Source: Parcubacteria group bacterium GW2011_GWC1_36_108 | GTDB lineage: Bacteria; Patescibacteriota; Minisyncoccia; Moranbacterales; GWC2-37-73 | Direction of reading: 5' to 3' | Assembly (NCBI GenBank): GCA_000991245.1 | Contig: LBRD01000001.1 | Location: 69,467-133,466, forward strand | Length of the DNA stretch: 64,000 nucleotides | Shown here: one piece after another, positions 7,713-60,803 of the stretch | Position numbering within the stretch: the first letter of the stretch is position 1 | Layout: each line of letters opens with the position of its first letter | The notes under the pieces: model-generated | Told to the model about the DNA's origin: nothing | The model's input: the letters and a program-made list of their open reading frames with translations, nothing else | Databases searched by the model: none | Made by a program: the position numbers and the translations under genes

Positions 7713-10199
7713 CTAAAAAGCTGATTCCTTCATTGCGCTGCGTGCAAATTGGGCGCGCTGCATAATCTCACGGTTCACAATGGCAGCGTCGCGGCCATAT
7801 TTGAGGCGTGACAGCTCTTTGAGATAATTGGCAGCTTCCTGATTACCTCTGGTTGGTGGATAAAATTTAATATTAAATGGTTTGGAAAGTTCCCCATTAA
7901 CAAGCATTCTCGTGAAACCACTATAATTATCAACGTTGACCAAATCATTAGCAGTAAAAATCGGTTCGAATTGTTTTTCCAAAAACTCTGCGTCTTCCGG
8001 TCCAACTCGCAGCGCCACCATTGAACCAACATTACCAAAAACTGCCTTGGAAATTTCTTCCTTGAGTTGCCCAATAAATTGATGTGCAATAATCAGACAC
8101 AAACGATATTTTCGCGCTTCAGAAAGAATTTGAGAAATTGATTCAGTTGTAACATTTTGAAATTCATCCAAATAAAGATAAAAATCGCGACGCTGATCTT
8201 CAGGCATATCGCCGCGCGCCAGCGCATTCATCAAAATTTTTCCCACAATAACCATCCCCAAAAGATGGGCATTAATTTCTCCAATCTTTCCTTTGGAAAG
8301 CTTTACCAACAAGATCTTACCAGAATCCATCACTTCACGGAAATTGATTGTACTTTTTTGCTGCGCGATGATTGGACGCATCATATCATTAGAAACAAAA
8401 GTGGTAAGTTTGGAAGTGATATATGGAACCATATTGGCAAGTGCCGCTTCCCCGCCAGCTTTCTCAGCTTCTTTGATCCAAAAATCTGAAACCACAGGAT
8501 TGTTGCATTTGGACAATTTCATTTTGCGGAAATCTTCATCAGCCAAGACCTTGGAAATTTCCATAAGCGTTGAGCCTGATTCAGGATCTTCCATAATAAG
8601 GAGCATTGCATTTCGCACATATTGTTCAAACATTGGACCTCCCGTAGCTTTAAGATCATACAATTGATCAAAAATACCAATCATTTCATTAATCACAAAA
8701 GTTTTTTGCTCAGGATGACTTGGGTCATATTCCAGCATATTAAGTCCAAATGGACGCTCCATATCGGATGGATCAAACACAATCACATCTTCCGCGCGCT
8801 CTTTTGGAATGGCAGTTAAAATATCTTCAATCGCATCTCCGTGTGGATCAATAAAGCAAAATCCTTTGCCGTCGCGCGCATCTTGTTTGGCCATTTCCTG
8901 CAAGAAATTTGATTTACCAACACCAGTTTGACCGATAGTATACAAATGTCTTCTTCTGTCTCCATCGCTAAGTCTGATGTCAGTTTTTACCCCACGATAA
9001 TCATTATAGCCAAGCACCAAACCTTCTTTTGGAATATTAAGTGGCGGTGGTGCAGCACCTGCCTTCAGCCATTTAATTTTTGGTGTTTCAGTGGTAGAAA
9101 TTGGAAAATGAAAAACACTGGCGATTTCTTCGGTAGACAAAATAATAGAATGATCTTCGTCAAAATTTCTGAAGATATAATCAAAAGATATTTTTTTGGA
9201 CTTTATTCTTTTTTGCACCACAAAATGATTGACGTCGTGATTTTCAAATTGCGCAAAAGCATTTTCCATATGCGCCAAAATTTCATCTGCCTTTTGTTGA
9301 GTCATTGCAGAGGCAAGCAAGCGAATATTAGCTTTGAATCCAGCCTTGCCAGATTTTGCTTCGATTTTCTTTACAAGCTCCTGCTCTTCAGGAGTAAGTT
9401 GCACTGATTCTTTGTGCATAATTTCCTCCTTTGGCTTGTTTTGAATCACTTGCACCATACCTTTTCCAAGATCCATTGCAATCGAACTTGAATGAGCATC
9501 TTTAAGTTGTTTTCCTTGTTGCATCTTGTGTGCGATTCCTCTTCCCAATTTTCTCCAGTTTTTTCCCGCAGGACGCAAAACAATTTGAATCGCCGCACCT
9601 TCCCCTTCTGTTTGCAGTTTACTAAGCGCATTTGAAATTTCGTTGAGCGGGTCAACATCAATATTTTCATATGTAAGAACTGGCAAAGCATACGAACGTT
9701 TAAGTCCAAGTGTTGCAGCAGCAGTAAAGCTCCCCGGCGAAAAAATCGTATAGTCAGGAATTTTTTCAATAGAAGCGTGTGGGAAATATGAATGAACTTG
9801 CTTCTCAATACTGTCACGAAATTTCTTCGGCACTGCCAAATAAAAAGAAATTTCCTCATTTCCACAAGGATTGGCAATTTCAAGTGCCATATATGGCTCG
9901 CTATACAAAAAATGAGCCCAGAGTGATTTTTTTTCTTTAATATTAGAAAGTGTCGTAAGCAATTGCTCCATCGCACCAATTTCCTCTTTCCAAGCCTCCC
10001 CATTTTCACTTCGCTCTCCTTTTTCCTTGAAAATTTTTGTCACTCGCACGACTTCCAAGTCCATATTCATTGAACGATTGATTTGAGCACGATAATTCAA
10101 AAAACTTCGCACAACTAAAAAAGCACCACTAAAAAGAGTCAGTGTGGCAAAAACCCAAAGCAAAGGGACGAGGATGGTGTTGAGGTCAAGAGTATTCAT
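7713..10199 (-). CDS. VirB4/TraC/TrbE-like (AAA_10/HerA-like) secretion or conjugation ATPase with N-terminal TM helices
   Basis: 828 aa; N-terminal TM helices; Walker A GQTGVGKS at about aa 425; Walker B YLYLDEFQN followed by IIAHQ. Confidence 0.55.
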   Translation of the reverse strand: MNTLDLNTILVPLLWVFATLTLFSGAFLVVRSFLNYRAQINRSMNMDLEVVRVTKIFKEKGERSENGEAWKEEIGAMEQLLTTLSNIKEKKSLWAHFLYSEPYMALEIANPCGNEEISFYLAVPKKFRDSIEKQVHSYFPHASIEKIPDYTIFSPGSFTAAATLGLKRSYALPVLTYENIDVDPLNEISNALSKLQTEGEGAAIQIVLRPAGKNWRKLGRGIAHKMQQGKQLKDAHSSSIAMDLGKGMVQVIQNKPKEEIMHKESVQLTPEEQELVKKIEAKSGKAGFKANIRLLASAMTQQKADEILAHMENAFAQFENHDVNHFVVQKRIKSKKISFDYIFRNFDEDHSIILSTEEIASVFHFPISTTETPKIKWLKAGAAPPPLNIPKEGLVLGYNDYRGVKTDIRLSDGDRRRHLYTIGQTGVGKSNFLQEMAKQDARDGKGFCFIDPHGDAIEDILTAIPKERAEDVIVFDPSDMERPFGLNMLEYDPSHPEQKTFVINEMIGIFDQLYDLKATGGPMFEQYVRNAMLLIMEDPESGSTLMEISKVLADEDFRKMKLSKCNNPVVSDFWIKEAEKAGGEAALANMVPYITSKLTTFVSNDMMRPIIAQQKSTINFREVMDSGKILLVKLSKGKIGEINAHLLGMVIVGKILMNALARGDMPEDQRRDFYLYLDEFQNVTTESISQILSEARKYRLCLIIAHQFIGQLKEEISKAVFGNVGSMVALRVGPEDAEFLEKQFEPIFTANDLVNVDNYSGFTRMLVNGELSKPFNIKFYPPTRGNQEAANYLKELSRLKYGRDAAIVNREIMQRAQFARSAMKESAF

Positions 10200-10204
10200 T
10201 TTTG

Positions 10205-10360
10205 TTTTATATTTATTTTAATGCATTCATGATACGAATGTTACGAATGACCTTCTACGAATGACGCTAATATGCAAATCAGCCTTCGCATTTTTATTCG
10301 CATCATTAGCATATTCGCGTATTTGCATACATTTGCATAATTCGTATAATTCGTATCAAA
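10205..10360. repeat. Palindromic array of acgaatg/tgcgaat/tgcaaat-type octamers (family R)
   Basis: Left half has forward units (tacgaatg, gctaatatgcaaat); right half has the reverse-complement units (attcgcat, atttgcat, attcgtat). Confidence 0.7.
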
Positions 10361-10798
10361 TCAAATTTCCTTTATCATCCCCTTCTCCACCAATGCATTG
10401 TGCAGTTCTTCGCCGAGCATACGGTCGTGAAAAGTGTCGAGGACATAATTGTCTTGCATATGTTGCGCAACTTTCACGGCGTGTACAACACCTTTTTGCC
10501 CTGCAATATCAACCAAATGCTGCACTTGTGACTCTGCATCCATTTTTTCGTAGCCAGTCTTCGCATCAGCCGCAATAACTGTCTGATCCAATTCATCATC
10601 TGTTTGCACTGTTTGAACTTTAGAAAGAATTTTTCCATAAGCATCATCCTTTTCAGCTGCACTAACTTCTTTTATCGCTTCACGCTCAATAGCAGCAGCA
10701 GGCACAGCCTCCTCACGAGAAAAATCTACACTTCCATTTTTAATTTTACCCTCCAAGTCCAAATCACTTTCTTCAATCGGCTCTAGGTTACTCTTCAT
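10361..10798 (-). CDS. Hypothetical acidic protein
   Basis: 145 aa ORF, D/E-rich. Confidence 0.45.
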   Translation of the reverse strand: MKSNLEPIEESDLDLEGKIKNGSVDFSREEAVPAAAIEREAIKEVSAAEKDDAYGKILSKVQTVQTDDELDQTVIAADAKTGYEKMDAESQVQHLVDIAGQKGVVHAVKVAQHMQDNYVLDTFHDRMLGEELHNALVEKGMIKEI

Positions 10799-10799
10799 A

Positions 10800-10862
10800 A
10801 GTTTATAATACTAATTATGCGAATGTATGCAAATACGCGAATATGCTAATGATGCGAATTCA
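10800..10862. repeat. Half-array of forward atgcgaat/atgcaaat/atgctaat units (left arm)
   Basis: ctaattatgcgaatgtatgcaaatacgcgaatatgctaatgatgcgaatt. Confidence 0.65.
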
Positions 10863-11261
10863 CTCCTTTGCAGATGAATTAATAATTCTCTTAGGAATTA
10901 AATGTCTTTGATGAAAATTTACGATAATACCTAATTTTAAATTTGCTGCTTTTAAATATCTTTGCGTTTGATTATATTCATCCCTACCTACGAATCTTTT
11001 TGCTTTAACCTCAACAACAATTTTATCCTCTATCAAGAAATCCACCCTATTACTATTATTTCGCATCAAATCATTACCGCTATCTATGCAACATTCTCTT
11101 TTATAATTTATTTGTTTCATTTTCAGTAGTTCTTCAATTGCATCACAATATTGCACTTCCTTACAATAAAAACCAAGTTCATTGTGAGTATCGAAAAATA
11201 TTCCATTGAGTGTATAGGATATTTCAGGATAAATAATATTTTCTAGATTTTTAGTCATCAC
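10860..11261 (-). CDS. PD-(D/E)XK nuclease-superfamily protein, GxxExxY-like
   Basis: 133 aa; N-terminal LGFYCKEVQY (G-x4-E-x2-Y, one residue longer than GxxExxY) and D-x-(E/D)-x-K core DFLIEDKIVVEVKA. Flanked by the two complementary half-arrays of family R. Confidence 0.5.
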   Translation of the reverse strand: MMTKNLENIIYPEISYTLNGIFFDTHNELGFYCKEVQYCDAIEELLKMKQINYKRECCIDSGNDLMRNNSNRVDFLIEDKIVVEVKAKRFVGRDEYNQTQRYLKAANLKLGIIVNFHQRHLIPKRIINSSAKE

Positions 11262-11306
11262 ATTTGCATATTTGCATCATTTGCATTAATTCGCACATTC
11301 GTATCA
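11262..11306. repeat. Half-array of reverse units atttgcat/attcgcac/attcgtat (right arm)
   Basis: catttgcatatttgcatcatttgcattaattcgcacattcgtatc, the reverse-complement unit type of the array at 10800-10862. Confidence 0.65.
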
Positions 11307-11618
11307 CTTATTAGCAGCCATCATTTCACCTCTAAATTCTTCAATAATCCCCTGCACCATTTCATCATAATCATTAATTCTTTCTTTGAAAAATTCTTCT
11401 ACTTGCTCTGGTGCAACTTCACCTTCTGACATTTTTTCATATTCTTCGCGTCCTTCTTCGCCAAGTTTATCCATTGTTTCCAAAAAAATTCTCTTCAGCA
11501 AAACTTCCGTCATCTTAATGATGAGTTCATTTTGTTTGTCTTGAGAAAGCGTGTCGATTCCCAAATCCTTAATCAATTGACTCAATGCCTCTGCTTGCGC
11601 AGTGTTATGTTCTTCCAT
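11304..11618 (-). CDS. Hypothetical small acidic coiled-coil protein
   Basis: 104 aa ORF. Confidence 0.45.
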   Translation of the reverse strand: MEEHNTAQAEALSQLIKDLGIDTLSQDKQNELIIKMTEVLLKRIFLETMDKLGEEGREEYEKMSEGEVAPEQVEEFFKERINDYDEMVQGIIEEFRGEMMAANK

Positions 11619-17622: not shown

Positions 17623-17743
17623 ACAGCTAATAAAGAAACAGGGGGGAATTCTATTGAGAATAAAAAACTAATTTCAATCACAAAAATACAACCCCAGTTA
17701 AATAGTCTGCCTACGGCAGAATTTAACGGGGCAAGAAACAAAA

Positions 17744-19306: not shown

Positions 19307-19420
19307 GCTTAACATAATACGAATTATGCGAATTTATGCGTATGGTGCGAATATGCGAATGACACGAATCATTTGCGTATTCGCGTATTAGCATGACATT
19401 CGCGTCATTAGTATAAATTT
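19307..19420. repeat. Palindromic octamer array, family R
   Basis: cgaattatgcgaatttatgcgtatggtgcgaatatgcgaatgacacgaat | catttgcgtattcgcgtattagcatgacattcgcgtcattagtat. Confidence 0.7.
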
Positions 19421-21324: not shown

Positions 21325-21346
21325 TGTACATTTAAATAGATGTGCA

Positions 21347-21419
21347 TTGTCATCCTCAGCTTGACTGGGGATCCAGAGCGATGCCTAGCCCTGGATTCCC
21401 GTTTTCACGGGAATGACAC
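21347..21419. mobile_element. Palindromic element (PE) copy A, intergenic, inverted and diverged
   Basis: ttgtcatcc...ggatccag...ctggattcccgttttcacgggaatgaca; the reverse complement matches the 5' module gtcattcccgtgaaaacgggaatccag of copies B and C. Confidence 0.6.
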
Positions 21420-21469
21420 AGTGGTAATAATTAAGTTAACCTAGTGTTGCGTAACAAGTTACGTAACTT

Positions 21470-23295: not shown

Positions 23296-23392
23296 TCAAC
23301 CATGTAGCATGTAGCATGTAGCATGTAGCAAGAGCTTTTTAAAACTCTCCGCATTTTTGTTATATGTTATATGTTGTATGTTATATGATTAA
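23296..23392. repeat. Tandem heptamer arrays (catgtag)x4 and (atgttat)-type
   Basis: catgtagcatgtagcatgtagcatgtagca ... atgttatatgttgtatgttatatg. Confidence 0.7.
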
Positions 23393-25796: not shown

Positions 25797-25891
25797 TATA
25801 CGAATTATGCAAATTAATGCTAATACACGAATATGCAAATTAATTCATTCGCATATTTGCATCATTTGCATTCATTCGCGTATTAGTATCA
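25797..25891. repeat. Palindromic octamer array, family R
   Basis: cgaattatgcaaattaatgctaatacacgaatatgcaaattaatt | cattcgcatatttgcatcatttgcattcattcgcgtattagtat. Confidence 0.7.
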
Positions 25892-26899: not shown

Positions 26900-26904
26900 A
26901 AGCG

Positions 26905-27005
26905 TAAAAAATTTCTAATTACTAATTTCTAATTTCTAAACAATTTCCAATGATTCAATTTTTAAATCCTAATTTCTAATTTCTAATTCCTAACTCCTAA
27001 AATCT
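26905..27005. repeat. Tandem (ctaattt/ctaattc)n array
   Basis: taattactaatttctaatttctaaa...cctaatttctaatttctaattcctaactcctaaaatc; extends into the 3' end of the next CDS. Confidence 0.65.
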
Positions 27006-32416: not shown

Positions 32417-32617
32417 ATGTTTTGTTTTTATTTTGGTTATTTTACAACTATATTATACAAAATTTTGACACTATTAGCAAGCAACAAAGCAATAATTTTC
32501 AATTTACAATTCACAATTTTCATTTAATTTTCAAATACTTAATTTTCAAATCTAAATTAAAATTTTAGTCATTGAGTCATTGAGATTTTATTGGAAATTG
32601 GGAATTGATCATTGGTA

Positions 32618-32648
32618 ATTTAAAAGGTTCGCAATAATTGCGAACCCA
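32618..32648 (-). terminator. Rho-independent terminator downstream of rnc
   Basis: ggttcgcaataattgcgaacc hairpin followed by a T-run on the minus strand. Confidence 0.55.
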
Positions 32649-32696
32649 GTTGACATAGAAAATATAATTTTGCAATAAAACAAAAAGCGAAGTTTT

Positions 32697-33434
32697 CTAG
32701 ATCCAGCTTTTCGCTTCTAATCCCAATCTAGCGGCTTCCCGCTGAGCTTCTTGTTTTGAATTTCCTTCTCCTTCAGCAACCAATTCATCTGCCAGATATA
32801 CTCCAACCACAAAATGCTTGTCGTGATCAGGTCCCCATTCTTTCATTACGCGATATGATGGTGTTACTTTGCTGTTTTCTTGTGCTTTCTCTTGAAAATA
32901 ACTTTTGGGATCAAGATATAATTTTTTCTCAATTATTTCGCTAAGTTTTGTGGCTACATTTTTCAATACGAATTTTTTTGTAACATCATAACCCTGATCA
33001 AGATATGCTGCACCAATAATAGCCTCCAGTGCGTTAGCCAACAAATATTGCCGAGCACGTCCCTTGTCTTTTGCTTCGCCACGACTCATTAATAAATATT
33101 TTTCAACTCCAATTTCTTGAGAAACAACAGCTAGCATTTCGCCGTTTACCAATGCGCTGCGCCAGCTGGTAAGTTCTCCTTCCGGATTTTTATAATTATT
33201 GTACAAATGTTCAGTAATAATAAGTTCCAAAACTGCATCACCCAAAAATTCCAAACGCTCATTATGGTCAAGCGCATAATCCCTGTTTTCATTCAGATAA
33301 CTGCGATGAGTCACTGCCTGACGCAACAACTCGATATTATCAAATTTAATGCCAATTTTCTTAGCCAAAGACTCTACCATGGAATTTAATGTCAAAACCC
33401 CAATAACAAATGTCAAATAAATGCCAAATGTCAA
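32697..33434 (-). CDS. rnc: Ribonuclease III
   Basis: 245 aa; RNase III signature ERLEFLGDAVLELIITEHLY, C-terminal dsRBD. Confidence 0.85.
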   Translation of the reverse strand: MTFGIYLTFVIGVLTLNSMVESLAKKIGIKFDNIELLRQAVTHRSYLNENRDYALDHNERLEFLGDAVLELIITEHLYNNYKNPEGELTSWRSALVNGEMLAVVSQEIGVEKYLLMSRGEAKDKGRARQYLLANALEAIIGAAYLDQGYDVTKKFVLKNVATKLSEIIEKKLYLDPKSYFQEKAQENSKVTPSYRVMKEWGPDHDKHFVVGVYLADELVAEGEGNSKQEAQREAARLGLEAKSWI

Positions 33435-33510
33435 AATTCAAAAAATTTAAACATTAGGATTTGATTTGAAATTTTTAATTTGAAATTTTTAATTTGAAAT
33501 AATTATTACG
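33395..33510. repeat. Tandem oligomer arrays (aaatgtca/aaatgcca; tttgaaattttta x3)
   Basis: caaatgtcaaataaatgccaaatgtcaaaa ... atttgaaatttttaatttgaaatttttaatttgaaat. Confidence 0.65.
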
Positions 33511-33512
33511 CT

Positions 33513-34013
33513 TCAATTTTTTTCCTCCTCCACTTTTTCTATCTTTTCTTCAGATATTTCCTTATGTTTCTTCGTGCTATCATCTTTCATTGGTTCGCCC
33601 ATTTCGCGATAAATCGTGCCTAGCACACCGTTTACAAAGCGGGCAGAACTTTCGCCGCCAAAAGTTTTGGCAAGTTCAATAGATTCATTGATGGCAACTT
33701 TTGGAGGAACTTCACCATAATTACCATGCATAAGTTCATATATCCCCAAACGAAGAATGTTGCGATCAATAATTGTCACTTGTTCCAAGGGCCATTCAGG
33801 AGCACATTTTTCAATCAGAGCATCAATAGTTGCTCGTTTTTCAAGTGTTCCTTTTGCAAGCGCTTTTACAAATTCGCAGTCCTCAATTCCCGGAGCAAAT
33901 TCCGAGACATTGCGCGCCACGATGTCGGAAATTTGCTCATCGTGCTTACCTTGAAAATCCCACTCAAAAAGAGCCTGCATTGCTACTGATCTTTGAAGGT
34001 GCCTGTTAGCCAT
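33513..34013 (-). CDS. nusB: Transcription antitermination factor NusB
   Basis: 166 aa; [18 protein letters not shown]-terminus typical of NusB. Confidence 0.8.
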
Positions 34014-34115
34014 TGAAGTAACTGATTTTCACGAATTTAAAACGAATTTTCACGAATCACGAATGATCCGTGATCTGTGATTATTAGTTTTACATCTGTG
34101 TTTATCCGTTTATAT

Positions 34116-34313
34116 TTATTTTTTCTTCGCTACTTTTTTGATTGTATTTACAACTTCATTTCCCTTGTAAAATCCACAGTGAGTACAAACTCTGTGCGCA
34201 AGTTTTTCCTTGCCACATTTTGTGCAAGTTTGAGTTTTCACAGTTTCAATTGCAAAGCGATCGCGTTTAGCATCTCGTCGTTGTTTAGTGTGTCGTTGTT
34301 TTGGTACTGACAT
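34116..34313 (-). CDS. rpmF: 50S ribosomal protein L32
   Basis: 65 aa; MSVPKQRHTKQRRDAKR..., CxxC...CxxC zinc ribbon. Confidence 0.75.
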   Translation of the reverse strand: MSVPKQRHTKQRRDAKRDRFAIETVKTQTCTKCGKEKLAHRVCTHCGFYKGNEVVNTIKKVAKKK

Positions 34314-34379: not shown

Positions 34380-34440
34380 TAATTTTAGGGTTTTAATTTC
34401 CAATTTCCAATTTCCAATTTCCAATCAATTTCCAATGACC
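34380..34440. repeat. Tandem (tttccaa)n array, reverse complement of the ttggaaa arrays at 25225 and 43676
   Basis: tttccaatttccaatttccaatttccaatcaatttccaatg. Confidence 0.7.
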
Positions 34441-37129: not shown

Positions 37130-37280
37130 TTTTTTAAACTACATTGTTTGTGGTTTTTTATTTTATCCGTAATTTTATAATTTTTAATTTTGTAATTTTT
37201 AAATAATGTTCAAATTTTTTAATTTTTAAAAATTAAAAATTAAGATTTATTTATAAAATTTAAAAATTAAAAATTTTTAA
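37130..37280. repeat. AT-rich (aattttta/aaaattaaaaatt)n array
   Basis: Similar arrays at 41040-41170 and 48170-48285. Confidence 0.6.
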
Positions 37281-37282
37281 AT

Positions 37283-40873: not shown

Positions 40874-41174
40874 CAAATGGAGCTGCGGATTACCAACCCG
40901 CTTACAGGCTTCCGATTAAGCTGCTTGCGAACAAGCGCACAAAGTGCCCAAATAATACGGGAAATCGAGTGGAACCACCGCAGCGCAAGCTGGGGTCTCG
41001 ATAAAAAAACATTAATCTGTTTTTGCTGTATTGTTTAGGGTTTTTATTTTTAAATTTTTAATTTCCAATTTTGTAATTTTTAAATAAATCCTAATTTTTA
41101 ATGTTTAAAAAATTATGATTTTATATTTTATTTAAAAATTAAAAATTACAAAATTTAAAAATTAATACATAAGT

Positions 41175-42947
41175 ATGAAAGATGAATCAAACAAATTAGA
41201 ACTCCTCCGCCACTCCACTGCTCACATCCTTGCCAATGCTGTTTTGGAAATGTTTCCGGAAGCTAAATTTGGCATTGGACCGGCGGTGGAAAATGGATTT
41301 TATTACGACTTCGAACTTCCAAGAACTTTGATTCCGGAAGATCTTCCATTGTTGGAAGAAAAAATGAAAGCGATAATAAAAGCAAACCACGCATTTGAAA
41401 AAGCTGATGTTTCTGTTGAGCAGGCGATGGAAAAATTCAAAGAGCTTGATCAAACTTTAAAACTGGAACTTATTGATGATCTTCATAAGGCTGGAAATGA
41501 AACTGTCACGATTTATAAATCTGGACATTTTGTGGACCTCTGCTCTGGACCACACATTGAATCAACTGGCAAAATTCAGCACAATGCTTTTGCGCTTACA
41601 AAAATTTCCGGAGCTTATTGGAAAGGAGATGCTGAAAAGCAACAACTGCAAAGAATTTATGGAGTAGTATTTGAAAATAAAGAAGGACTCAAAAACTATT
41701 TCCACCTAGTTGAAGAAGCTGCAAAAAGGGATCATCGCAAACTTGGTAAGGAATTAGATTTATTTTGCTTTTCAGATTTAGTCGGACCAGGGCTTCCACT
41801 TTTCACGCCTAATGGAACCATCATCAAAGATGAACTGCAAAAGCATATTGAAAAAGTTTGCCGAGGATATGGTTTTCAAAAAGTTTCAACTCCACATCTT
41901 GCTAAAATAGATTTATATGAAAAATCAGGACATGCTCAAAAATTTGGAGATGAACTTTTCCAAGTAGCATCACATTACAAACAAAATTATGTGATGAAGC
42001 CTGTGCAATGTCCTCATCAAACTCAAATTTTTGCTTCTAAGGCTCGTTCATATCGAGACCTGCCTATTCGTTATATGGAAAGTGAAAAGCAATATCGCGA
42101 TGAAAAACCCGGAGAAATTGGTGGTCTTCAACGTGTAATTGCAATCACAGTTGAAGATGGTCACAGTTTCTGCACCGTTGATCAGGTCAAACAAGAAGTA
42201 AAAAATATGGTAGAAATTATTCAAAATTTTTATACATCATTGGGAATGTGGGAAAATCACCGTGTTTCACTTTCAGTGCGAGATTATGCACATCCAGAAA
42301 AATACATTGGAGAAGCCGCTGATTGGGATGTTTGCGAAAAAATGCTGCAAGATATTTCAGATGAAATGGGTCTAAATGCAATTAAACACGAAGGAGAAGC
42401 TGCGCTTTATGGTCCAAAATTAGATTTTATGTTTCAAGATTCTCTTGGCAAAGAAATTCAAATTCCAACAGTGCAACTTGACTTTGCTACTCCAAAGAGA
42501 TTTGAGTTGGAATATACCAATAACGAAGGAGGAAAATCTTCTCCAGTTATGGTGCATCGAGCAATTTTAGGATCTTACGAAAGATTTATGATGCTCCTCA
42601 TCGAACACTTTGCCGGAGCTTTTCCACTTTGGCTCTCCCCTGTTCAAGTTGCTGTTTTGCCAATTTCTGAAAAATTTGCAGACTACGCCGAAGAAGTAAA
42701 AAAGAAATTTTTAGAAAATGATATCCGTACCGAACTTAGCGACAAAGCTGAATCACTTGGCAAAAGAATTTCCGAAGCAGAAAAAATGAAAACTCCATAC
42801 ATTATTGTGGTTGGAGAAAAAGAAGTTGCAGACAAAACTGTAGCAATTCGAACTCGTGGAATTAGAGAGCAACAGACACTGCCAATTGACGAATTCATCG
42901 AAAAAATGGTAAAAGAAATTAAGGAAAAGAAACAATTAGTACCTTAA
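41175..42947 (+). CDS. thrS: Threonyl-tRNA synthetase (short form lacking the N-terminal TGS domain)
   Basis: 590 aa; HSTAHIL editing-domain motif, class II catalytic core and anticodon-binding domain. Confidence 0.85.
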   Translation: MKDESNKLELLRHSTAHILANAVLEMFPEAKFGIGPAVENGFYYDFELPRTLIPEDLPLLEEKMKAIIKANHAFEKADVSVEQAMEKFKELDQTLKLELIDDLHKAGNETVTIYKSGHFVDLCSGPHIESTGKIQHNAFALTKISGAYWKGDAEKQQLQRIYGVVFENKEGLKNYFHLVEEAAKRDHRKLGKELDLFCFSDLVGPGLPLFTPNGTIIKDELQKHIEKVCRGYGFQKVSTPHLAKIDLYEKSGHAQKFGDELFQVASHYKQNYVMKPVQCPHQTQIFASKARSYRDLPIRYMESEKQYRDEKPGEIGGLQRVIAITVEDGHSFCTVDQVKQEVKNMVEIIQNFYTSLGMWENHRVSLSVRDYAHPEKYIGEAADWDVCEKMLQDISDEMGLNAIKHEGEAALYGPKLDFMFQDSLGKEIQIPTVQLDFATPKRFELEYTNNEGGKSSPVMVHRAILGSYERFMMLLIEHFAGAFPLWLSPVQVAVLPISEKFADYAEEVKKKFLENDIRTELSDKAESLGKRISEAEKMKTPYIIVVGEKEVADKTVAIRTRGIREQQTLPIDEFIEKMVKEIKEKKQLVP

Positions 42948-48168: not shown

Positions 48169-48282
48169 AAATAATTTTTAATTTTTAATTTTTAATTTTT
48201 AATCAATTTCAAATGACCAAATTTTAAAATTAAAAATTCATATTTTATTTCAAATTTCAAATTAAAAATTTCAAATTTTGCT

Positions 48283-53317: not shown

Positions 53318-53475
53318 AAAAGTAGTGACGTGAGATTATAATAATAAGAACTATTACCCAAATACTAACAACATATAAACAATGCAGTCAAGAGTTACAC
53401 AAAAAAAAGACACCCGTATGAGTATCTTTTTTGTGAACTCTAAGTTCCTAATTCCTAACTCCTAAATCCTAAGTG

Positions 53476-54204: not shown

Positions 54205-54345
54205 CTAATTAAATTATAAATATAATACTAATATGCAAATTTATACTAATACGCGAATACGCTAATGACGCAAATGAAAACGTGAGCACTGATTTGCATA
54301 TTTGCATCATTCGCAGAAGGTCATTTGCATCATTTGTATCAGGTC
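54205..54345. repeat. Palindromic octamer array, family R
   Basis: ctaatatgcaaatttatactaatacgcgaatacgctaatgacgcaaat ... atttgcatatttgcatcattcgca...tcatttgcatcatttgtatc. Confidence 0.7.
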
Positions 54346-55507: not shown

Positions 55508-55696
55508 TTACTTTATAATAAATGTCTTCAAAATGTAACTAAAAATCCAATCTAATCCCCCAAGAAATCCTGCAACAACCAAGCTAACTGCGACCACAAG
55601 CAACGTATAATTCACTGTTTGCTTTTTGGTTGGCCAATTCACTTTCAGCATTTCTGCCTTAGCTTCAAGGAAAAACTGTATAATTTTGTTAATCAT
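55508..55696 (-). CDS. secE: Preprotein translocase subunit SecE
   Basis: Single TM LLVVAVSLVVAGFLGGLDWIF. Start placed at MINKIIQFF; upstream ATGs lie in the (taacatg)n array. Confidence 0.75.
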   Translation of the reverse strand: MINKIIQFFLEAKAEMLKVNWPTKKQTVNYTLLVVAVSLVVAGFLGGLDWIFSYILKTFIIK

Positions 55697-55780
55697 GTAA
55701 CATGTAACATGTAACATGTAACATTTTAGGCAAACAGCAATGTTTTTGCTATATGCTATATGCTATATGCTATATGATTT
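55697..55780. repeat. Tandem arrays (taacatg)x4 and (gctatat)x4
   Basis: taacatgtaacatgtaacatgtaacat ... gctatatgctatatgctatatgctatatg. Confidence 0.75.
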
Positions 55781-55893: not shown

Positions 55894-55970
55894 TTGGTGG
55901 GCTTATCAAGATTCGAACTTGAGACCTCGTCATTATCAGTGACGCGCTCTAACCAGCTGAGCTATAAGCC
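55894..55970 (-). tRNA. tRNA-Ile (anticodon GAU), CCA encoded
   Basis: Minus-strand sequence GGGCTTATAGCTCAGCTGGTTAGAGCGCGTCACTGATAATGACGAGGTCTCAAGTTCGAATCTTGATAAGCCCACCA folds as a canonical cloverleaf. Confidence 0.9.
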
Positions 55971-56009
55971 CGTATAATTTGTAAAAGCTGCGTGATAAAC
56001 GCAGCATTG

Positions 56010-56082
56010 TGGACCGGACAGGACTTGAACCCGCTACCTCCTCAGTGCAAGTGAGGCGCTCTACCAGGTGAGCTACCGGCCC
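56010..56082 (-). tRNA. tRNA-Ala (anticodon UGC), no encoded CCA
   Basis: GGGCCGGTAGCTCACCTGGTAGAGCGCCTCACTTGCACTGAGGAGGTAGCGGGTTCAAGTCCTGTCCGGTCCA; G3:U70 Ala identity pair; T stem contains two G-U pairs. Confidence 0.85.
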
Positions 56083-60195: not shown

Positions 60196-60229
60196 ACAAA
60201 TAAAATATTATTTTGAAATTATATTTTTT

Positions 60230-60375
60230 CCCATTTAATTCAATTTTAAATCCCAATATCAAAATCTAAATTTCAAATAAATGCCTAAATGACGAAATGT
60301 CAAAAAAATGCATTGATTTTTTAGAATTTAAGATTTTAGGTTTTATTTGACATTTGTCATTTAGATTTTGGATTT
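60230..60375. repeat. Oligomer arrays (aaatgtca/aaatgcct; gatttta/ggtttta)
   Basis: Intergenic region between trxA and trxB. Confidence 0.55.
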
Positions 60376-60376
60376 T

Positions 60377-60706: not shown

Positions 60707-60803
60707 AACTTTTGTTCATGTAGCATATAGCATATTTATACTATAAACTTTTTCTATTATTAATTTAGTGTTACATGCTATATGTTGCATGTTATATGAA
60801 TTT

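Follow-up and report, generated by a model that had tools for sequence, protein, structure and literature searches.

The 64,000-nt stretch of DNA analysed here (the window) comes from Parcubacteria group bacterium GW2011_GWC1_36_108, one of the Candidatus Moranbacteria (contig LBRD01000001.1, positions 69,467 to 133,466), and at its positions 10800-11306 it holds a small cassette in which a gene for a GxxExxY-type nuclease is enclosed between two arrays of short, related repeat units. The cassette lies between a DUF5663 gene and a gene for a 145-aa protein. Transcription runs along the minus strand, on which the DUF5663 stop codon is followed by forward units, the open reading frame (ORF), reverse units and the ATG of the 145-aa gene. 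Its parts, with the units as read on that strand, are the following:

11261..11306, minus strand: upstream arm, with five to six forward units (TACGAAT, TGCGAAT and three times TGCAAAT)
10860..11258, minus strand: nuclease ORF, GxxExxY / PDDEXK_3, 132 aa, with the ATG at 11258
10800..10862, minus strand: downstream arm, with five to six reverse units (ATTCGCA, ATTAGCA, ATTCGCG, ATTTGCA, ATTCGCA, ATTAGTA)

The upstream arm spans the distance from the stop codon of the DUF5663 gene to the start codon of the nuclease, and the downstream arm runs from the nuclease stop codon to 7 nt short of the ATG of the next gene. The two arms (10808-10851 and 11261-11304) are 84% complementary, and the gene splits the array, as had been noticed in an earlier reading of the sequence (the original prediction) that placed a nuclease gene between a forward-only and a reverse-only half-array. 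The listed start of the ORF is a GTG at 11261, one codon upstream; the ATG at 11258 is the more likely start. The identical ATG-start protein (P0001) is present in NCBI, JGI and ENA, and the exact 133-aa GTG-start version is not on record.

The protein matches both PF13366 PDDEXK_3 (E 2.9e-20, 73.2 bits, cut-off 22) and TIGR04256 GxxExxY (E 3.4e-18, 66.1 bits, cut-off 35). Across 71 homologs D73 and K85 of the catalytic core are invariant and E83 is the majority residue; in a smaller alignment (A1) the D, E and K of the core are all invariant. E34 and Y37 are nearly invariant, and the G that gives the family its name is replaced by Y in the window protein (YCKEVQY) and by I in one comparison locus (L049), being kept in two others (L065 and L023). 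The AlphaFold model has a predicted local distance difference test score (pLDDT) of 91.4 and the element order H-H-E-E-E-H-E-E. The best Foldseek matches in the PDB (lambda exonuclease, Cas4, Hjc and tRNA endonuclease) have E values above 1e-3, and these nearest solved structures have only the generic PD-(D/E)XK fold in common with the model.

The same units recur in other spacers of the window. The consensus unit, (T/A)(A/G)C(G/A/T)AAT, makes up an octamer together with a spacer of 0-3 nt, and sites were defined as [AG]C[GAT]AAT or its reverse complement. A pattern scan of the window found 7 clusters of at least 4 sites under a 7-mer definition, whereas 200 shuffles that preserved composition averaged 0.52 such clusters and never exceeded 3. 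The clusters match the array positions that had been predicted. They belong to the following arrays:

10205..10360: gene-less inward-facing array between the 145-aa gene and a type IV secretion system (T4SS) coupling-protein-like gene; sites at 10234-10354 (five forward, then seven reverse); arms 10230-10279 / 10305-10358, 78% complementary
10819-10859: cluster of five forward sites, in the downstream arm of the nuclease
11262-11315: cluster of six reverse sites, at the upstream arm of the nuclease
19307..19420: gene-less inward-facing array between two PMT_2 glycosyltransferase genes; sites at 19319-19403 (five forward, then four reverse); arms 75% complementary
25797..25891: gene-less inward-facing array; sites at 25800-25879 (five forward, then four reverse); arms 77% complementary
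34014..34115: diverged inward-facing array between rpmF (34116..34313, minus strand) and nusB (33513..34013, minus strand); sites at 34031-34064; arms 71% complementary
54205..54345: gene-less inward-facing array; sites at 54235-54328 (four forward, then four reverse); arms 81% complementary

The window therefore contains five complete inward-facing arrays, in which forward units (left) face reverse units (right) and the arms are 71-81% complementary, and a sixth array that is split exactly by the GxxExxY / PF13366 gene (10860-11258, minus strand). With arm complementarities of 71-84%, the arrays are imperfect palindromes. Four complete palindromes had been predicted; those four stand, in this imperfect form (75-81%), but a further region, 34014-34115, is complete as well, with a diverged unit. 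Read in the direction of transcription, its units are CACAGAT/CACGGAT followed by four copies of ATTCGTG.

The gene-less arrays and the cassette have more in common than a motif. With the right halves reverse-complemented, ten half-arrays from the window form an in-register alignment that has 24 invariant columns (alignment A3) and gives an arm of about 50 nt with five units, ATACGAAT-TATGCGAAT-GT-ATGCnAAT-GACGCGAAT-ATGCAAAT, in which an ATAC-type unit invariably comes outermost and units of the TGC or CGC type lie further in. Twelve cassette arms from three gene contexts (cassettes of the window and of loci L167, L170, L173, L180 and L088) likewise align in register, with 23 invariant columns (alignment A4). 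Nuclease-carrying and gene-less copies thus share their terminal inverted repeats (A3, A4; complementarity 71-84%), and the in-register alignment of the half-arrays identifies the gene-less arrays and the nuclease arms as copies of one and the same element, beyond mere resemblance of motifs. Around the 145-aa host gene we also observed a 55-nt inverted repeat (10805-10859 and 10296-10350) that consists of the downstream arm of the nuclease and the near arm of array 10205-10360. Its copies are 95% identical, compared with 71-84% within any single element, which suggests that the neighbouring elements have recently exchanged sequence by gene conversion.

The association between gene and units extends across the family. 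We assembled 83 non-redundant nuclease genes, comprising homologs from a metagenome scan (80 loci, 31-52% identical), the window gene and three Moranbacteria loci, and aligned the 130 nt upstream of each gene to the reverse complement of the 130 nt downstream. The threshold score of 12 was reached or exceeded by 73% of the nuclease genes; among 1296 control genes, taken from these loci as well, the share was 5.9% (Mann-Whitney p = 5e-32). Unit orientation is strict: within 100-nt flanks ACGAAT occurs 80 times upstream and 0 times downstream in the forward direction, and its reverse complement occurs 88 times downstream and 6 times upstream; overall, ACGAAT is 11-fold enriched over control flanks. 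The survey of other GxxExxY genes that the original prediction had called for therefore bears out the bracketing by complementary half-arrays. The commonest units around the nucleases are TACGAAT, TACAAAT, TACTAAT, TACGAAA and AACGAAT, spaced mostly at 7-8 nt with a second mode at 10-11 nt, and the median cassette has four units upstream and three downstream. The gaps between the nuclease and its neighbours (medians 43 and 47 nt) are filled by the arms, and the gene runs in the same direction as both neighbours 49 times and against both twice. The more two proteins differ, the more their arms tend to differ in the units they contain (Mantel r = 0.16, p = 0.0065).

Three metagenome contigs carry two GxxExxY cassettes within 3 kb: L085 (1210-1608 and 2763-3188), L090 (1324-1716 and 3968-4372) and L121 (83-484 and 963-1358). 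The L085 pair has different unit types, TACTAAT and CACAGAT. We also examined three plasmid homologs from outside the Candidate Phyla Radiation (CPR). A Treponema plasmid (L176, 1495-1930) has a GxxExxY gene flanked by just one inverted repeat, perfect over 11 bp (ACACGGATTCG / CGAATCCGTGT), a Fusobacteria plasmid (L177, 1400-1920) has one with a direct repeat of about 25 nt containing AATCCGTG, and the homolog on a Persicobacter plasmid has TAATCC-type units. Since these flanks differ, the array form is not universal in the GxxExxY family.

The genomic contexts of the nuclease are diverse, 138 neighbouring proteins falling into 100 clusters of which 79 are singletons. The closest homolog (77% identical) sits in another Moranbacterium (L167), in the same slot between the DUF5663 and 145-aa genes. 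Homologs 73% identical to the window protein are found between the genes for phosphoglycerate kinase (PGK) and enolase (L170-L175), where they carry the TGCGAAT/CGCGAAT/TGCAAAT unit subtype, as does the window cassette. Comparison with relatives revealed the presence/absence polymorphism for which a check had been proposed. In L001, which among the relatives is closest to the window (coding regions 91-95% identical at the nucleotide level), the slot has no nuclease gene; the same holds for L010 (72-90% identical in coding DNA), and across about 70 species this slot is often just 0-60 nt long. At PGK-enolase, empty sites in L179, L181 and L182, with PGK 85-90% identical, are spacers of 31-63 nt with zero units, and three other relatives have the complete series of arm, ORF and arm there. 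Unit-free empty sites imply that arms and ORF arrive as one piece. The five loci with the nuclease do not group together in a tree of the coupling protein; each has a sister locus that lacks it.

Gene-less arrays of this unit type are also unevenly distributed. The window has about 78 of them per Mb and contigs with the nuclease have 64 per Mb, compared with 10.6 per Mb, six to seven times sparser, in 1.41 Mb of Moranbacteria loci, almost all of which are without the nuclease gene. Inward-facing arrays outnumber outward-facing ones by 27 to 3. All 7 cassettes of loci L001-L080 (4 with GxxExxY genes and 3 with genes for four-helix-bundle proteins) lie in two spacers 5' of the coupling-protein gene, namely window 10200-10360 and 10799-11303 and their equivalents, out of about 20 spacers available per locus. 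The coupling-protein-like gene itself (7713..10199, minus strand; 828 aa) is 99% identical to its counterpart in the metagenome-assembled genome UBA12142, and the stretch is 100% identical to contigs of GCA_000991495.1 and of several aquifer metagenome assemblies. One metagenome assembly (sample 3300025011) breaks within the nuclease gene, where one contig ends (L161, at window 11213) and another starts (L166, at window 10913); either the cassette or its repeats disrupt the assembly, or the population varies at this point.

Constraint is seen on the protein and on the arms alike. Between two PGK-enolase cassettes the synonymous divergence (dS) is 1.24 and the ratio of nonsynonymous to synonymous divergence (dN/dS) is 0.05. 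Third codon positions in this pair are 66% identical and 4-fold degenerate sites 9/21 (43%), compared with 87% for the upstream arm and about 85% for the core of the downstream arm. With arm identity above that of synonymous sites and a dN/dS of 0.05, constraint extends to both components, and judged from these substitution patterns the ORF is under strong purifying selection. Tblastn found no decayed gene fragments in the fetched loci, barring truncations at contig ends. The lone sign of decay among about 90 copies is in L180 (3557-4042, PGK-enolase), where the nuclease start is ACG instead of ATG and the called product has 116 aa.

On balance we think that 10800-11306 is a compact selfish cassette, mobile or formerly so, whose arms are its cis-acting ends and whose gene-less arrays are derivatives resembling miniature inverted-repeat transposable elements (MITEs). 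This is one of two options raised by the original prediction, in which the arrays terminate a small selfish element that has the nuclease as its cargo, with cargo-less derivatives elsewhere; both checks that had been proposed, the survey of other GxxExxY genes and the comparison of relatives, favour it. The other option, that the arrays are a preferred integration site, loses ground, since arms that travel with the gene count against pre-existing arrays as integration sites. We suppose that the cassette settles in short spacers between co-directional genes and would be expressed along with the host operon. The arms would act as terminal inverted repeats of about 45 nt with four to six inward-pointing octamer units, each a putative binding site for a protein, and the nuclease itself, in dimeric or oligomeric form, is the most economical candidate. 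The enzyme might cut at the ends or the centre of the element, with insertion proceeding either by transposition or by break-induced copying that uses the arms as homology. The five gene-less arrays may then be non-autonomous, resembling MITEs or the hairpin-forming doublets of repetitive extragenic palindromic (REP) sequences known as REPINs, and could have arisen by loss of the ORF or as copies mobilised in trans.

Several observations weigh against this interpretation. The 49 to 2 co-orientation with neighbouring genes is not expected of free transposon insertion in the absence of selection, and a dS of 1.24 between cassettes in one slot points to long vertical residence over frequent movement. 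We caught no excision or insertion within one species, and 5/5 assemblies of the window's own genome carry the cassette. L167, L170 and L173 (37 kb in total) have the cassette and zero gene-less arrays. The cassette is without any recombinase or recognised transposase (DDE, serine, tyrosine or HUH), its sole ORF being the 132-aa PD-(D/E)XK protein. In a check by eye for target-site duplications, CATT was seen on both sides of 25797-25891 and none at six other ends. Cassettes that hold 23S_rRNA_IVP genes, described below, share the architecture with different units, so that the architecture does not need this nuclease; the feature specific to GxxExxY is the conserved TAC(G/A/T)AAT unit, not the architecture. 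Finally, recognition and cutting of the units by the nuclease, like the mechanism of mobility, are something that we infer.

The alternative that survives best, although we consider it unlikely, is an RNA element like the intervening sequences of 23S rRNA. The arms would pair into a stem of about 45 bp around the ORF, and RNase III would cut it, separating the host messages and freeing the nuclease mRNA; gene-less arrays would serve as hairpins in processing or stability, and mobility would be secondary and independent of the units. Both the minimum-free-energy and the centroid fold of window:10795-11320(-) indeed pair the arms around the ORF, solo arrays are predicted to fold far more stably than their shuffles (z = -3.4 to -8.5), and RNase III is encoded at 32697..33434 (minus strand). 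The co-orientation of the ORF with its hosts (49 to 2) and the exact fit of the arms to their spacers are in line with an RNA role, as is the finding that sister cassettes hold 23S_rRNA_IVP genes, the cargo of classical rRNA intervening sequences (Coxiella, PMC4990558). However, among 81 cassettes the arm duplex is energetically better in the sense strand in 38 and in the antisense strand in 42 (p = 0.81), so that the arms lack the signature that selection on an RNA stem would leave through G-U wobbles, and the RNA strand bias across the array families of the window is mixed. The whole 526-nt fold is no more stable than shuffles (z = -0.59), and the arrays have no match in Rfam. A stem also leaves unexplained both the persistence of TAC(G/A/T)AAT around nucleases that are 30-50% identical and the 27 inward-facing arrays against 3 outward-facing ones. 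The missing sense-strand advantage, the inward orientation and the conservation of the unit beyond the needs of a stem together favour recognition of the units at the DNA level.

We think it slightly less probable that the arrays are a host regulatory module, in which GxxExxY would be a sequence-specific DNA-binding protein, cleaving or not, and the arrays its operators, some of them autoregulatory, with roles in operon insulation, repression or nucleoid organisation much like the heptad arrays of the omega repressor of pSM19035. A dN/dS of 0.05 at a dS of 1.24, with its long stay in one slot, would suit such a host function, as would arm conservation exceeding that of synonymous sites, unit spacings of 7-8 and 10-11 nt that resemble cooperative operator arrays, and the invariably intergenic position of the arrays. 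A regulator is harder to reconcile with the patchy distribution of the gene, even among close relatives, its roughly 100 different gene contexts and the retention of the catalytic residues. Promoter-like matches in the arms are at chance level (7 found, 6.6 expected), and genomes about 92% identical hold unrelated repeat families in syntenic spacers, for which turnover of selfish DNA is the better fit.

Least probable of the three is insertion of a naked nuclease ORF at the centres of pre-existing arrays (hairpins or recombination hot spots): the ORF is invariably central, complete gene-less arrays of the same unit occupy the same slot in L009 and L053, and 7/7 cassettes of L001-L080 lie in the two spacers 5' of the coupling-protein gene, but the PGK-enolase sites of close relatives are empty and unit-free, the arms are homologous in register across unrelated contexts, and the unit subtype tracks the nuclease lineage.

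Three other identities were tried and rejected. An intrinsic terminator or promoter module was set aside, the arrays having no terminator-like site and promoter-like matches at the expected number (7 and 6.6); canonical terminators with a GC stem and a T run are present elsewhere in the window. A known RNA family was dismissed, Rfam giving only two tRNAs and no rRNA in the window, and a defence system was discounted on weak PADLOC matches only. No relative was found among viral contigs.

The cassette resembles several known systems and lacks at least one defining feature of each. A GxxExxY gene bracketed by an inverted repeat that is also dispersed in intergenic regions is a feature shared with REP sequences and REPINs and their REP-associated tyrosine transposases, RAYTs (Bertels and Rainey 2011, PMC3116915). 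In both cases a low-copy gene lies between inverted copies of a short repeat that is dispersed intergenically as hairpin-forming doublets, the repeat subtype tracks the protein lineage, and the system is long-lived, vertically kept and patchy. The enzyme differs, however, being here a 132-aa PF13366 PD-(D/E)XK nuclease with no PF01797 and there a Y1/HUH transposase of the IS200/IS605 superfamily, and so does the repeat, each arm of the cassette consisting of four to six tandem octamers whereas REP is one palindrome of 20-40 nt.

Intervening sequences of 23S rRNA with an S23p / 23S_rRNA_IVP ORF (Coxiella, PMC4990558) also have a small ORF in the loop of a long stem of terminal repeats, are inserted in a transcribed host region and are regarded as selfish. 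The cassette differs in its location between the DUF5663 and 145-aa genes instead of helix 25 or 45 of 23S rRNA, in its nuclease cargo, and in arms that are unit arrays of conserved sequence with a stem predicted from an RNA fold. Leptospira also has such intervening sequences carrying an S23p / 23S_rRNA_IVP ORF.

Free-standing homing endonuclease genes, such as seg and mob of T-even phages and those of the PD-(D/E)XK type, for example I-Ssp6803I, spread by cutting the gene-less allele. Like the cassette, they consist of a lone small nuclease gene in a spacer between conserved genes, present in some relatives and absent from others, and under purifying selection; unlike it, they have no terminal repeat arms or gene-less derivatives. 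Transposon ends with multiple sites are known from Tn7, where TnsB sites occur with the PD-(D/E)XK nuclease TnsA, from Mu, and from Ac/Ds and En/Spm with their MITEs. Here too the terminal inverted repeats are made of several inward-pointing short repeats, protein-binding in those elements and putatively so in the cassette, and gene-less copies with the same ends outnumber the autonomous copy; the cassette differs in having no DDE transposase or recombinase, no clear target-site duplication and a length of just about 500 bp. The omega repressor of pSM19035/inc18 plasmids is a ribbon-helix-helix protein that binds heptad operator arrays. Its contiguous 7-8 bp units, direct and inverted and upstream of genes, recall the arrays described here, but no such protein is linked to these arrays, which bracket a nuclease gene and are dispersed in the chromosome.

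We found no description of a GxxExxY gene with octamer-array arms in the searchable literature. On our reading the cassette would be an autonomous element with MITE-like derivatives, in which both the presumptive enzyme and the kind of arm are new. A survey of the PD-(D/E)XK superfamily in 2012 listed PF13366/TIGR04256 as a family of unknown function, present in prokaryotes and viruses and transferred multiple times (PMC3424549). The present analysis gives this family a precise and testable genomic grammar of inward TAC(G/A/T)AAT units flanking the gene. More tentatively, and with the odds against it, we raise the possibility that GxxExxY (PF13366) proteins are the mobilising nucleases of very small prokaryotic elements that have gone unrecognised, with the octamer arms as binding sites and gene-less copies rewriting CPR spacers. 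If this were true, the arm-ORF-arm layout shared by 23S_rRNA_IVP genes would place the classical rRNA intervening sequences as one branch within a wider guild of cassettes that dwell in spacers. If the nuclease acts on the units, it would define a new minimal type of mobile element, provide a function for the family, and help to explain the wholesale replacement of spacers in streamlined CPR genomes that are 91-95% identical in coding regions. The arrays may also break assemblies and could pass for regulatory sites, and they could mark strain-level dynamics.

The unit family described above is one among about ten families of short-unit arrays in the spacers of the window. Units of the other families are AACTYAYA, CATGTAGC/CATGTAAC, AATTTCTAA, ATTTTCAAT, AATTTGAAAT, AATTTCCAAT, AATTTTTAA and TCCTAA, and their arrays are found at these positions:

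1985-2147; 23296-23330; 26900-26989; 32500-32650; 33435-33512; 34400-34440; 37172-37282: other short-unit arrays, first part of the window
41042-41180; 48169-48282; 53435-53475; 55690-55725; 60196-60376; 60707-60803: other short-unit arrays, second part of the window

In most of these families, too, forward units are followed by reverse units; this architecture is general in the genome, and the unit sequence alone varies. Opposite window 10199-11306, L001 (9289-9392 and 9826-10000) and L010 (9237-9393 and 9827-10000) have unrelated units (ACATGTAAC, CTAAAGA, ATTTTCAAT), and the spacer of L001 equivalent to 19307..19420 holds another, GC-rich inverted-repeat element instead of the array. Alignments of the window with L001 and L010 break precisely at each array, and in these comparisons spacer content is replaced far faster than genes.

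Genes for 23S_rRNA_IVP proteins (four-helix-bundle, bAvd-like) lie between complementary half-arrays in L015 (3389-3757), L072 (9555-9911) and L077 (9569-9943), with further cassettes in L112 (2279-2641) and L132 (4818-5219). Their units are diverse (GAACATA, ATTTTCAAT, CTAAAYCC, TCTAATTA). The first three are in the two spacers 5' of the coupling-protein gene, and the gene of L015 is found exactly where the window has its nuclease.

For landmarks in the window, RNase III (32697-33434, minus strand) and two tRNA genes (one landmark at 55898-56082, minus strand) were assigned by Pfam/Rfam, and NusB (33513-34013, minus strand) and ribosomal protein L32 (34116-34313, minus strand) were recognised from translations only. 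A GC-rich inverted-repeat family (TGTCATCCTGAGC... / ...GGAATGACA) occurs in spacers of the window (21330-21440) and of L001 (about 720-860 and 17640-17690), and in L072 (104-385) it brackets a 93-aa GIY-YIG gene; another GC-rich inverted repeat brackets a DUF559 gene in L069 (496-846). IS200-like Y1 transposase genes (RAYT-like) with inverted repeats of their own were found in L107 (183-875), L052 (21273-21947) and L031 (12515-13180), the Pfam check covering L107 only; classical elements of the REP/RAYT type thus coexist with the nuclease cassettes.

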